NCBI GenBank assembly: GCA_965216785.1
Contig: OZ244197.1
Coordinates: 224,001-288,000, forward strand
Direction: 5' to 3'
DNA from: Thermodesulfobacteriota bacterium
GTDB taxonomy: Bacteria; Desulfobacterota_D; UBA1144; Nemesobacterales; UBA2774
DNA length: 64,000 nucleotides
The translations under genes and the position numbers were made by a program. Shown in pieces: positions 41,972-46,525 of this stretch; the first letter of the stretch is position 1, and each line of letters opens with the position of its first letter. The notes under the pieces were generated by a model that searched no databases, was not told the origin of the DNA, and worked only from the letters and a program-made list of their open reading frames with translations.

Positions 41972-43528
41972 TTAGTTAGCTACGGCAGTTGCGCGTACTT
42001 CCCTAATAACAGTAATCTTCACCTGCCCGGGATAGGCAACTTCACGCTCTATCTTCTGGGCAATCTCATGTGAGAGGAGCGCCCCTTCTTCATCATTCAC
42101 CTTGGTGCTCTCCACAATAACCCTCACTTCGCGCCCGGCCTGTATCGCGTAGCATTTTTCGACTCCCCTGAAGGAGCCCGCGATGCTCTCAATATCTTCT
42201 ATACGCTTTACGTAGGCTTCATAGGTCTCGCGCCTCGCCCCCGGTCTTGCGGCTGAGATGGCGTCTGCGGCCTGTACGAGAATGGCCAATATGGACTGCG
42301 GCTGCGGGTCGTGCGCAAGCGCTACCGACTCTATGATGTCGTCAGACTCACCGTACTTTCTAACAAGGTCTTCACCAATGTCCACGTGAGAGCCTTCGAT
42401 CTCGTGGTCGACCGCTTTTCCTATGTCATGGAGCAAGCCCGCCCGCTTGGCAAGCTTTATATCGTAGCCGATTTCAGCTGCCAGTATCCCGCATATGAAC
42501 GATACTTCAATTGAGTGGTTCAGTATATTCTGTGAATAGCTCGTTCTGTATTTGAGCCTGCCAACGAGCTTAATAAGCTCGGGATGCATGCTGGCGATTC
42601 CTAGATCGAAGAGAGCTTCCTCGCCCGATTTCAGAATCGCACGGTCAACTTCTTTTTCCACGCTAGAAACGATCTCTTCGACGCGCGCCGGGTGGATCCT
42701 GCCGTCTTCGATTAATTTCTCAAGCGACATCCTGGCAACTTCACGCCTTATGGGATTAAGGGACGAGATCACAACGGTCTCGGGAGTATCGTCAATTATG
42801 ATATCCACGCCGGTTCTCGCCTCTATGGAGCGTATATTTCTCCCTTCACGTCCGATAATCCTGCCTTTCATATCGTCGTTTGGCAGATTGACTACGGATA
42901 TCGTCTTTTCGCTCGTATACTCACCCGCGTACTTTTGAATTGCCATAGCAATGATGTCTTTGGCTTTGCGCTCGGCGTCTTCATGAAGCTGGTCTTCCAT
43001 CTGTTTGAGTTTCTTGGCGGCTTCATGACGAGCTTCGTCTTCAATGATGTTTATAAGCTCGCTTCTGGCAGCCTCCTGGGTCATGCCGGCGATTTCCTCA
43101 ATCTTTTTCTTCGCCTCTACAATAACCTGATCGAGCTCTTCTTCTTTTCCGGCAAGAGAGGATTCCTTTTGAGCGAGCTCACGCTCTTTTTTCTGCATAT
43201 CGGCCTCTTTTTTATCAGCCGCTTCGAACTTCTTGTCCAGAGTTTCCTCTCTTTTCTGGAGCTTTTTCTCTATTCTCTGATGCTCTCTTTGTCTGTCTCT
43301 TGCCTCATTCTCAATCTGAGAGCTTCTTTTCTCTACTATCTCTTTGGCTTTAAGCTCTCCCTGAATTCTTATCTTATCGGCCTGCTGCTTTGCGGATTCG
43401 AGAATAACCTCTGCTTCATCTTTTTTAATACCAATTTTCTTTTTGAGCTGAATGAATCTGTAAAGGTAATGTACTGCGAACCCTAAAACAAAAGCTATGA
43501 CAGCAGCCGCAATTATCGACATTGTCAT
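41972..43528 (-). CDS. rny: Ribonuclease Y
   Basis: TM anchor, coiled coil, KH 'MKGRIIGREGRNIR', HD 'LLHDIGKA'. Confidence 0.97.
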   Translation of the reverse strand: MTMSIIAAAVIAFVLGFAVHYLYRFIQLKKKIGIKKDEAEVILESAKQQADKIRIQGELKAKEIVEKRSSQIENEARDRQREHQRIEKKLQKREETLDKKFEAADKKEADMQKKERELAQKESSLAGKEEELDQVIVEAKKKIEEIAGMTQEAARSELINIIEDEARHEAAKKLKQMEDQLHEDAERKAKDIIAMAIQKYAGEYTSEKTISVVNLPNDDMKGRIIGREGRNIRSIEARTGVDIIIDDTPETVVISSLNPIRREVARMSLEKLIEDGRIHPARVEEIVSSVEKEVDRAILKSGEEALFDLGIASMHPELIKLVGRLKYRTSYSQNILNHSIEVSFICGILAAEIGYDIKLAKRAGLLHDIGKAVDHEIEGSHVDIGEDLVRKYGESDDIIESVALAHDPQPQSILAILVQAADAISAARPGARRETYEAYVKRIEDIESIAGSFRGVEKCYAIQAGREVRVIVESTKVNDEEGALLSHEIAQKIEREVAYPGQVKITVIREVRATAVAN

Positions 43529-43529
43529 A

Positions 43530-44318
43530 TTAAACGCCTCCTAATTTACTACTACAAAAAACTATACCCTGCTCATGCACCAAAGTGCCTACATTAATAT
43601 CGTGGCATTGGGTAGGAATACTTTTCTGCAATTGAAATTTATATGAGATACCTATCCTTCTCTGTAGGGGTATAGAGTGTGCGAATCGGTCGTAGAACCC
43701 TTTACCGTACCCGAGCCTCGAGCCCGCGCTGTCAAATGCGACTCCGGGGAGCAGGAGAAGATCAAGCTCGCCGGGCTGAACCCGAGGAGCGCCGGAGTCA
43801 GGCTCCGGAACCCCGAATTTTCCCGGAGTAAGCTCGTCTAGACCAAACACCCTGTGAAAGGATAGGGAACTGCCTGAAACTTTTGGGAAATAAACCTCTT
43901 TTCCCAATTCTAATGCTTTAAAGAAAATGGAGTCGGTCCTTACCTCGCCTCTAATGGGAGAGTATAGAGCGATCCTATGAGATATCTTGAAACTATCTAA
44001 AGAGGTTAATTTTAGATATATTCCGTAACTCTTTTTTACTTGGTCACTTAAGGAGAGTGCAGAGCGCTCAAGCAACACACGCTCACGAATACTGTCTTTA
44101 TCTTCTGAAAGACCGCCGTTCCCTTTACTTACTCTTGAGAAAAACTCCTTTTCATTACATACATCATCTGTACTTGAATGTATCTTCCAGTTCTTCTGAT
44201 CTAAGTTCTTCTCTTTGAATACCTTCTTGATAACTAAAGGGTTCGCTGTCTTTAAGGGATCCTTCCAATATTTGAACCAATCTATTTGATCTCTGCTCAG
44301 ATGCGTCTTTGAATTCAT
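43530..44318 (-). CDS. ygfA: 5-formyltetrahydrofolate cyclo-ligase (start uncertain; conserved domain begins near 44100)
   Basis: 'K..IR', 'GEV.T', 'G.FGVPEP', 'PGVAFD..G.RLGYGKGFYDR', 'HDI'. Confidence 0.9.
   Translation of the reverse strand: MNSKTHLSRDQIDWFKYWKDPLKTANPLVIKKVFKEKNLDQKNWKIHSSTDDVCNEKEFFSRVSKGNGGLSEDKDSIRERVLLERSALSLSDQVKKSYGIYLKLTSLDSFKISHRIALYSPIRGEVRTDSIFFKALELGKEVYFPKVSGSSLSFHRVFGLDELTPGKFGVPEPDSGAPRVQPGELDLLLLPGVAFDSAGSRLGYGKGFYDRFAHSIPLQRRIGISYKFQLQKSIPTQCHDINVGTLVHEQGIVFCSSKLGGV
44108..44253 (-). ncRNA. ssrS: Putative 6S RNA (long imperfect hairpin with central bubble) overlapping the zapA 3' end and the ygfA frame
   Basis: End-to-end pairing AAAGAC/GUCUUU, CCCUUUA/UAAAGGG, UUA/UAA, AGAAGG/UUUUCU; A-rich central bubble; apical stem AUCA/UGAU, ACU/AGU, GAA/UUC; sits at the canonical zapA-ssrS-ygfA position. 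Confidence 0.7.
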
Positions 44319-44526
44319 CAAAGTCTCTTCCTAACTTGAAGTAATCATCGGTAATCTTGAGCATGGCAACAAGAAATGAACGAGGTACCGCTATATTGCT
44401 CTCCTTTTCTGATATTTCTTTTACTTTTTCCTCGAGAAAAGATGCAATCTTCTGGACGTACTCTTCGTCCGCGTCGGTTTTAATAACGTACTCGGTATTT
44501 AGAAATTTTATGGTAAGCCTTTTCAT
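44164..44526 (-). CDS. zapA: Cell division protein ZapA (C-terminally extended)
   Basis: 'I....Y.I......EYVQKIA..L...V.EI...AMLKITDDY' pattern; synteny with ygfA-rny. Confidence 0.85.
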   Translation of the reverse strand: MKRLTIKFLNTEYVIKTDADEEYVQKIASFLEEKVKEISEKESNIAVPRSFLVAMLKITDDYFKLGRDFDEFKDASEQRSNRLVQILEGSLKDSEPFSYQEGIQREELRSEELEDTFKYR

Positions 44527-44527
44527 A

Positions 44528-44737
44528 TTAAGCTTCGGACCTGCTCAAATAAATTTCTACCTTTTCAATAACGCTATCTAACTTGGTTTTCATATCGTCA
44601 CGCTCTTTCTCCAGCTTCTTAATACTATCCCGAAGCTTAGAGACCTCTTCCATGAGGTTTTTATGCTCAACCTCAAGCTTTGTCTTCCTGGACAAAGCTT
44701 CTTTTATTTTGCCTTCAAGAATATCCATTGTTTCCAT
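44528..44737 (-). CDS. Small coiled-coil protein, ZapB-like
   Basis: 69-aa heptad coiled coil immediately upstream of zapA ('LEGKI....L..E...L'). Confidence 0.7.
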   Translation of the reverse strand: METMDILEGKIKEALSRKTKLEVEHKNLMEEVSKLRDSIKKLEKERDDMKTKLDSVIEKVEIYLSRSEA

Positions 44738-44805
44738 TGTCTTACCTGAACAAGTTTAATATTATCTTGAAATTTTTGCAAGTTATGTGAATATAATAAC
44801 CGAAA

Positions 44806-45879
44806 ATGGCAGAAGTTGGAATGTTAAAACGACTTGAAGAAGTCGAGAAAAAATATCTGGATATTGAGCAGTCTCTCAGTAAACCCGACATAAGCCCTCA
44901 GGAAATTCATAAGTTTTCAAAAGAGCTTTCAGACCTTGAGGAAGTTGTGAGCATATACCGGGATTACAAGAAAGTGCTCGAAGGCATAGAGGAAAATACG
45001 CCGCTCCTAAAAGACGAGGAGCTCGGTGAGCTTGCGCGCACGGAGCAAGAGGGGCTCGAAAAAGAGCGTGACGATCTTGAAAGTAAGCTTCATCTGCTGC
45101 TGCTCCCCAAAGACCCGAACGACTCTAAAAACGTGTTCCTGGAAATAAGGGCCGGCACGGGAGGGGACGAAGCCGCTCTATTCGCTGCGGACCTTTTCAG
45201 GATGTACTCACGATACGCGGAAGAAAAAAAATGGAAAGTCGAAGTAATCAACCTTAGCGAGACCGGCATCGGGGGGCTTAAAGAGGTCGTAGTCGCAATC
45301 GAAGGCAAAAACGTTTACAGCAGGCTTAAGTACGAGAGCGGAGTACACAGGGTCCAGAGAGTCCCCACCACCGAGACAGGCGGCAGGATACATACCTCTA
45401 CGGCAACGGTAGCCGTGCTGGCAGAGCCTGACGACGTCGAAGTAGAAGTAGACGAGAGAGAGCTTAAGATCGATACATACAGGGCTTCAGGTCCCGGCGG
45501 CCAGCACGTAAACAAGACCGACTCCGCAATAAGGATCACTCACTTACCGACAGGAATAGTAGTACAGTGCCAGGACGAGCGCTCGCAGCACAAAAACCGC
45601 GCGCACGCAATGAGGATGCTAAAAGTGAAGCTCTATGAAATAGAGGAGCAAAAGCGCCTGAGCGAAATTGCCGACACCCGTAAAAGCCAGGTAGGCACGG
45701 GAGAGCGCAGTGAGAAGATAAGGACCTATAACTTTAAAGACGGAAGGATCACCGATCACAGAATCGGTCTTACTCTCTATAAAATTGAGGCTATACTCGA
45801 AGGCGACCTGGACGAGATTGTAGATGCGCTCACCACCTATTATCAGACCGAGAGCCTAAAAGAAGCCGTATATTCTTAA
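44806..45879 (+). CDS. prfA: Peptide chain release factor 1
   Basis: '[11 protein letters not shown]', PxT motif 'VPTTE', GGQ, '[10 protein letters not shown]'. Confidence 0.97.
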
Positions 45880-46150
45880 CTGAGTAAATTATGCTCTTAA
45901 CAAGCTTAATTAAGTGAGGAAAACGCGCGGTCTCTCCCCGGTAATAAATCATTTATTACTCCCTAACAGCACCAAGTAGTTCTAAAGATCGATTTCCCGG
46001 CAATCTTTTTCTAAGAAATTCAAAATAATTAATTGCATCGAACAACCAACTTTGTTAGAGTGGTATTGATGGGGTTTGTTTTAATACCTTAAATCGTATT
46101 GAGTATCACGGAGAAGGGGTTATATATCATATTTCTCAGGAGGTGTACCT

Positions 46151-46525
46151 ATGTCAACCATAGGAAAGACTCAAATCACTATTATCTTTATAGCCCCTCC
46201 GGAACATGTAGCCGAAGGCGACCGCATTTTCCAAAGCCATGCTGCTTGGATGGAGAGAACACATCATAGGGATGGTGAGCTGGCACTGCTACGATACAAC
46301 ATTATCAAAGCACCCGAGCTTGAAAACCCGCTTGATCCGGGATCGGCACCGACCGGTAACACGATGTTCGTGCTGGACGAGATGTATGAAAACCAGGCCG
46401 GTCTGGACGATCACTGGAAACAAGCAGCTGAAAGCTGGGAAGACCTGGGAGCCATAGTAGAGTGGTCCAGTCAGTGCAAAGTCATAACTGCACACAACGG
46501 TGTAGCCATTCAAGGACTATGGTAA
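46151..46525 (+). CDS. Hypothetical protein, possibly a dimeric alpha/beta-barrel (ABM-like) fold
   Basis: SD GGAGG; 'FVLDEMYENQAGLDDHW' resembles the ABM E-Y...H motif. Confidence 0.6.
   Translation: MSTIGKTQITIIFIAPPEHVAEGDRIFQSHAAWMERTHHRDGELALLRYNIIKAPELENPLDPGSAPTGNTMFVLDEMYENQAGLDDHWKQAAESWEDLGAIVEWSSQCKVITAHNGVAIQGLW

Follow-up and report, generated by a model that had tools for sequence, protein, structure and literature searches.

What lies between zapA and ygfA in a genome in which the two reading frames overlap? Two papers (PMC7641849, PMC9130861) place the 6S RNA of proteobacteria between these genes, in the same gene order as in the window (the whole 64,000-nucleotide stretch of DNA analysed here). 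A sequence-only reading of the window had recognised this classic zapA-[6S]-ygfA slot, which the gene order bears out (PMC7641849), and had proposed that a compact, divergent 6S RNA is encoded there, overprinted by one or both reading frames.

Reading frames at the zapA-ygfA junction

Four genes, zapB, zapA, ygfA and rny, follow one another in this order on the minus strand of the window, with 1-nt gaps at zapB-zapA and at ygfA-rny (Table 1). As the sequence-only reading had described, zapA enters the predicted hairpin without a prior stop codon: the codons for residues 93-120 (28 aa) begin at 44250, within the rod, and since the predicted helix of ZapA ends at residue 92 and the protein at residue 120, these 28 residues come from the hairpin. 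The claim that the ygfA frame is open right across the element likewise held up, with the +1 frame free of stops from 44330 through the hairpin to the ygfA stop. We attribute this openness to a conserved ygfA start codon inside zapA, which the earlier reading had missed.

The window's phylum, Desulfobacterota_D, which we take to be Ca. Dadabacteria, was represented by 120 genomes comprising one class and two orders. Our main set consisted of 53 loci, namely the window's own and 52 from relatives, in seven families, and close kin among these are not independent observations. A further set held 33 loci in which both genes were located, including 10 of the sister order f9, giving a total of 86. 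Among the first 58 loci, five had no tblastn match to zapA, these being L058 (see below) and four loci of family f6 that were recovered later; in f9, 9 of the 19 loci lacked a usable zapA match (eight had none and L086 matched zapB). Locus L066, which has ygfA and no zapA, was left out, L068 was too short for the test of 5'-3' pairing, and the row for L158, whose frame stays open to the end of the locus, was dropped from the outgroup comparison of frames upstream of ygfA.

Table 1. Features of the zapB-zapA-ygfA-rny locus in the window, and examples of a repeat found elsewhere in the same genome
Feature	Positions	Strand	Remarks
zapB-like coiled-coil gene, 69 aa	44737-44528	-	PF06005 E 4.9e-5, under the curated cut-off
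zapA, 120 aa	44526-44164	-	PF05164 E 2.7e-14, residues 5-83
ZapA C-terminal tail, residues 93-120 and stop	44250-44164	-	coded within the rod's 5' half
Shine-Dalgarno-like site for the internal ygfA start	44332-44327	-	follows immediately on the final +1-frame stop (44333-44331)
Likely ygfA start codon, ATG	44318-44316	-	+1 frame of zapA codon 70
ygfA (5-formyl-THF cyclo-ligase), 262 aa, with 73-residue N-terminal leader	44318-43530	-	PF01812 E 2.1e-35
zapA/ygfA same-strand overlap, 155 nt, phase +1	44318-44164	-
Predicted RNA rod, 152 nt	44256-44105	-	from folding; not shown to be 6S
Best-conserved helix of the rod	44213-44203 with 44147-44137	-	encloses the zapA stop
rny (RNase Y)	43528-41972	-	1 nt past the ygfA stop; PF12072, PF00013, PF01966
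Intergenic repeat of ~165 nt, examples	1937769-1937931, 2229787-2229939, 2230858-2231020, 161109-161271, 2503373-2503524		positions on G000:C1; L100-L102

The predicted hairpin and the search for 6S RNA

Folding of minus-strand positions 44100-44262 gave -39.1 kcal/mol (z -3.35), a value matched by one of 200 dinucleotide shuffles. The rod that had been claimed was recovered; it reaches a few bases further (Table 1) than the claimed 44253-44108, and its central bubble is lopsided, measuring about 16 nt by 4 nt. For comparison, the real 6S RNA of L058 folds at -68.1 over 183 nt, and a neighbouring zapB coding window of the same genome reached z -4.2 against -3.5 for the rod. Within the window's genus, the z of the rod ranged from -2.8 to -3.7; over the 53 loci the element averaged -0.59, with six values below -2, and in 27 loci its mean was -0.93, while five flanking coding windows had means of -0.35 to -1.27. 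In the window's genus the hairpin exceeds chance; across its relatives it does not. In the low-cover RNA run X1 (share 0.08), a 185-nt contig covers 44062-44240 at depth 3.6 and another covers zapB-zapA at depth 4.5; these contigs show neither ends nor levels and so speak neither for nor against a discrete RNA, and runs X6 and X9 gave no contig here. The zapB window that outfolded the rod in this genome (z -4.2) is a 160-nt stretch of the minus strand, at about 44583-44742, that extends over the start of zapA. Its mean z over 27 loci was -1.27, and the 8 loci in which it fell below -2 are mostly of family f1; it possibly marks a structure at the 5' end of the operon.

The sequence-only reading had looked to an alignment of relatives for two things, a frame without stops and compensatory changes in the rod. 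The first was found (see the next section), and changes of the second kind were seen at a few pairs. Across 31 sequences of f1, the window's rod was 60.5% paired overall, with 52-56% in the outer stems and 76.4% in the best helix. Two short helices were 92.3% paired in these sequences, above all slid controls, for a structure derived from the same sequences, and only 3 of their 15 consensus pairs had two-sided compensatory changes (6 cells). Pairing between the 5' and 3' parts was stronger than in controls (median z -0.3) for f1, with a median of -1.5, and for f7, with -1.9; z fell below -2 in 16 of 44 cases vs 18 of 218 controls, and f8, f2, f3 and f4 had no such excess. With recodings that preserve YgfA as the reference, a weak test, the excess was small: median z values were -0.8 in f1, -1.6 in f7 and -0.3 in f8, compared with -0.2 for controls, and 8 of 70 cases reached z -2 vs 19 of 208 controls. 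Rod-like folds were seen in several f7 genomes, with the bubble at positions that differ between lineages. RNAalifold returned no consensus pairs on f7 plus g1 and a weak fold in another register on seven f7 copies, in alignments that indels may have spoiled. The spacer between ZapA codon 93 and the YgfA domain, which is the slot for any 6S RNA, measures 127-154 nt and is absent altogether in the sister order f9; this slot and the 152-nt rod compare with about 180-200 nt for 6S RNA (PMC9130861). The weak pairing in f1 and f7 may be a relic of a 6S RNA.

The Rfam models gave the proposed 6S RNA no support. A scan of 42000-46500 had no 6S match, the element alone did not match the 6S model even at E 10, and the most rod-like f7 copies (L032, L037) had no match at E 10 either, whereas the true 6S RNA in L058, the positive control for this covariance model, scored 62.3 bits. 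A search with RF00013 covered the window's genome, 61 relatives and 120 class members and returned one real match. On one count the proposal was not contradicted, in that no canonical 6S RNA appeared elsewhere: the window's genome had none, and matches above the cut-off were absent from 119 of 120 genomes of the phylum, in an insensitive search whose control was picked up in just 5 of the 14 genomes known to have it. Either 6S RNA was lost from the phylum or a very divergent one may be present. A scan of the minus strand gave no promoter or terminator consensus.

The one match, in genome G012, was considered as an in-group 6S RNA and rejected; it sits on a 1.7-kb contig with a second zapA that is only 26% identical, and since an in-lineage locus (L007) is present in G012 as well, we regard the match as foreign. 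The contig in question (L058, G012:C269:1-1694) holds a canonical zapA-6S locus and, after it, a coiled-coil ORF resembling the start of rny; it differs from the genome's own locus and is probably a contaminant in that assembly.

Several observations were made alongside these searches. In the outgroup, L110 has a 6S RNA between zapA and ygfA, and the deltaproteobacterial loci L107 and L109 have zapA-ygfA gaps of 332 and 321 nt, respectively, without an Rfam 6S match at the gathering score, which makes these gaps candidates for divergent 6S RNAs. A home-made scan for 6S-like rods in the 921 intergenic regions of the window's genome yielded 463 candidates; three rods among the best 40 of these 463, together with three repeat loci, had no Rfam match, and a divergent 6S RNA may still lie elsewhere in the genome. 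Intergenic rods with a two-sided bubble lie at G000:C1:2430276-2430466 (+), 746079-746269 (-), 220507-220697 (-) and 1045377-1045567 (+), the first two of which had no Rfam match. On the same contig, outside the window, a dispersed intergenic repeat of ~165 nt folds as one long hairpin and occurs in varied gene contexts (20 nhmmer matches, of which about 12 are near-full copies and four are split by an inserted piece; Table 1). It had no Rfam match and looks like a MITE or REP-type element.

Could this stretch nevertheless still give rise to a compact, divergent 6S RNA that both frames overprint and that is excised from the message to bind RNA polymerase? Its genomic slot is the right one, shared with the 6S RNA of outgroup L110, and the near-absence of any other 6S RNA in the phylum would fit, as would the significant rod in the window's genus, the rod-like folds in f7, the 5'-3' pairing above controls in f1 and f7 and the two well-paired f1 helices. 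Moreover, third positions in f1 change less in the linker that belongs to ygfA only than in the core (2.52 vs 5.65), for which coding alone is no explanation, and two silent linker sites are nearly frozen (0 and 1 changes vs 6-8 in the core, with only 2 and 3 sites counted). We nonetheless consider such an RNA improbable and did not file the element as 6S, because the residual pairing is weak, the spacer is absent in f9 and the slot is shorter than a 6S RNA. The failure to match the model, the poorly paired outer stems, the scarcity of two-sided changes, the missing consensus for f7 plus g1, the bubble that moves between lineages, the number of cases reaching z -2 against YgfA-preserving recodings, which is on a par with controls, the absent signal in f8 and the lack of a minus-strand promoter or terminator consensus all stand against it as well. 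An elaboration that we also hold to be unlikely is a triple use of the same letters, in which a shrunken 6S-derived RNA would work in f1 and f7, its 5' half encoding the ZapA tail and its whole length the YgfA leader; if it were excised, perhaps by RNase Y from the gene just downstream, ygfA would fall silent and ZapA would be shortened when RNA polymerase is sequestered.

The frame overlap and a putative start of ygfA inside zapA

The conserved feature of this locus is the reading-frame overlap rather than the RNA rod. ygfA lies in the +1 frame of zapA in all 86 loci with both genes located (53 plus 33), and in each of the 53 main loci this frame is open from zapA codon 45-69 onward. From zapA codon 70 to the zapA stop, not one of 2511 +1-frame codons is a stop, so that the absence of stops noted in the window is conserved in its relatives; in the same 53 loci, stops make up 330 of 3596 +1-frame codons upstream of codon 70 and 279 of 2511 codons in the +2 frame. 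Synonymous recoding of the same ZapA proteins predicted 79.8 stops in the +1 frame vs none seen, and with one genome per family the purge had a P of 5.5e-5. The spacer comes in eight different lengths, and the frame is kept in all of them. The overlap itself measures 89-158 nt in the 53 loci, all of one order, and 35-44 nt in f9. Over the shared stretch, both frames are thus open in relatives far beyond chance; judged in f1, the ZapA frame is constrained there, and the YgfA frame, purged of stops, is otherwise only modestly constrained.

Within zapA, a candidate start codon for ygfA is found as GTG at codon 75 in 44 of the 53 loci and as ATG at codon 70 in the other nine, never both. The nine loci with ATG, the form present in the window, belong to two separate lineages, g1 and f8. 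GTG-75 persists while the overlying ZapA residue varies (Arg in 22, Ser in 13 and Gly in 9 loci), and codon 70 ends in G in all 44 GTG loci (GAG in 38, AAG in 6), to be compared with 238 GAG among the 812 Glu codons elsewhere in zapA. Predicted pairing with the anti-Shine-Dalgarno sequence had a median of -6.2 kcal/mol at the start in the 53 loci vs -1.8 for 87 other in-frame NTG codons, and reached -4 kcal/mol or better at 52 of 53 starts vs 21 of the 87. The window's own Shine-Dalgarno site is among the weakest (-4.2 kcal/mol; that of L003 has -2.9), and the spacing to GTG is long, at 10-11 nt. All 33 further loci have ATG, GTG or TTG with a Shine-Dalgarno site within zapA and ygfA in the +1 frame; the codon is at zapA codons 73-74 in six f6 loci and at codons 70-73 in ten f9 loci. 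For L054 and L075, the script chose a later codon by its best Shine-Dalgarno score, and an NTG is present at the usual place too. An NTG near the start of the YgfA domain is found in 9 of 53 and 4 of 23 loci, at scattered positions; of 78 outgroup ygfA genes, 76 have such a codon between positions -12 and +6 (in codons) relative to the domain, and the median number of open codons upstream is 15. Judging from these sequence comparisons, stops are purged, the start and its Shine-Dalgarno site are conserved with exchange of GTG, ATG and TTG, and the usual near-domain start is mostly absent, so that the downstream gene would have its own start codon and ribosome-binding site inside the upstream gene. 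We therefore consider it likely that ygfA starts at 44318 inside zapA, so that the two genes have 155 nt in common and YgfA acquires a leader of 73 residues, predicted to be disordered, with ribosomes loading at the internal Shine-Dalgarno site.

Both protein products were examined for signs of constraint. In ZapA, the PF05164 match ends at residue 83 and the modelled helix spans residues 49-92; the tail has a pLDDT of about 40-55 and is acidic, with a median net charge of -4. In the zapA frame of f1, the tail shows 0.90 and 1.21 changes per site at codon positions 1 and 2 vs 2.31 at position 3, and since positions 1 and 2 change little, the tail appears to be under protein-level selection in this family. 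In f6 (L054-L057, L068, L069), the ZapA tail within the overlap is of another kind (KSLISKFIKLKMAYGAER-like); it is strongly conserved and differs from the acidic tail of f1, which suggests a separately evolved function. For YgfA translated from 44318, AlphaFold2 is confident at residues 69-250 and gives a pLDDT below 50 at residues 1-68; the leader is accordingly predicted to be disordered. Gene callers have predicted this long form in five 262-aa proteins of the database, and the public collection holds the exact 120-aa ZapA of the window and lacks the exact 262-aa YgfA. Amino-acid changes per codon of f1 YgfA amount to 2.2-3.45 in the overlap, 5.1 in the linker and 2.55 in the core, which suggests that the leader is constrained mostly to remain an open frame.

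The open +1 frame and the missing near-domain start would also be accounted for if ZapA and YgfA were fused by a programmed +1 (or -2) frameshift, or by transcript slippage, between codon 70 and the zapA stop, where the hairpin would make the ribosome pause. prfB and dnaX have a Shine-Dalgarno-like run inside the coding region, as seen here, and share with this locus a second open frame leading into a downstream domain. Unlike those genes, however, zapA/ygfA has a conserved start codon, and inspection of the 53 aligned junctions by eye showed no slippery sequence common to them at a constant distance from the internal Shine-Dalgarno site or the zapA stop. A frameshift would need no NTG, yet GTG, ATG and TTG interchange at one site, and in most loci the +1 frame opens only a few codons ahead of that NTG; we regard this mechanism as distinctly unlikely. 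Least probable of all is that translation of YgfA begins close to its domain, at a rare or near-cognate codon, the long open frame being a by-product of the ZapA sequence: an SD-like G-run ahead of codon 139 in f1, Ile at that site in 6 of 28 and the weakly conserved leader would suit it, but the ZapA sequence permits stops, as the recoding showed, the site is Leu in 22 of 28 (read as CTT in the alignment), f2, f5 and f8 do not share the G-run, and the start-codon swap would go unexplained.

Proposed reading and known systems

If ygfA is indeed read from the start inside zapA, ribosomes would load at the internal Shine-Dalgarno site and start codon of the zapB-zapA-ygfA-rny message, in the path of the ribosomes translating zapA. 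They would translate the 73 codons of the leader ahead of the enzyme domain, other ribosomes would end ZapA 155 nt further on, and YgfA output would be tied to zapA translation. Loss of its original start would have locked ygfA into this arrangement, and the leader would accordingly persist mainly as an open frame. The phylum would have lost or eroded its 6S gene, leaving the hairpin as a lineage-limited mRNA structure or a relic; a likely history would be that the 6S gene decayed or was deleted, that ygfA adopted a start inside zapA and that the zapA stop moved downstream. This reading would correct the ygfA start for the whole group, would mark a phylum without a recognisable 6S RNA and would describe one fate of the 6S slot, in which coding sequence moved over it from both sides. 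Should the residual pairing be functional, a structured RNA would lie beneath two reading frames.

With the 6S locus zapB-zapA-ssrS-ygfA (RF00013), the window shares gene order and strand and, in its own genus, a rod-like fold of roughly similar size. It differs in a slot that is short, fully coding and without a match to the model, and in a rod that is not order-wide; in the outgroup, the zapA-ygfA gaps are 321-471 nt in three of four loci and 148 nt in the fourth.

Long same-strand overlaps in bacteria are usually regarded as neutral accidents or annotation errors. According to PMC3887535 and PMC2542354, the commonest same-strand overlaps are of 4 nt and 1 nt, while long ones in prokaryotes are mostly of phase 1 and are explained largely without selection. 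Among the literature matches listed, which comprised titles and abstract openings and left most subscription papers outside, we found no report of a zapA-ygfA overlap. It resembles the long head-to-tail phase-1 overlaps of the same two papers (PMC3887535, PMC2542354) in that the downstream start moved into the upstream gene and the upstream 3' end was extended, and differs from them in its length (89-158 nt, or 35-44 nt in f9) and in being kept with compensating swaps of the start codon. The zapA/ygfA overlap appears long, old and selected, unlike the overlaps treated as largely neutral, and because it is kept throughout the phylum sample with compensating start swaps, it would offer a clean natural case for shared selection on two frames and for initiation within a translated gene.
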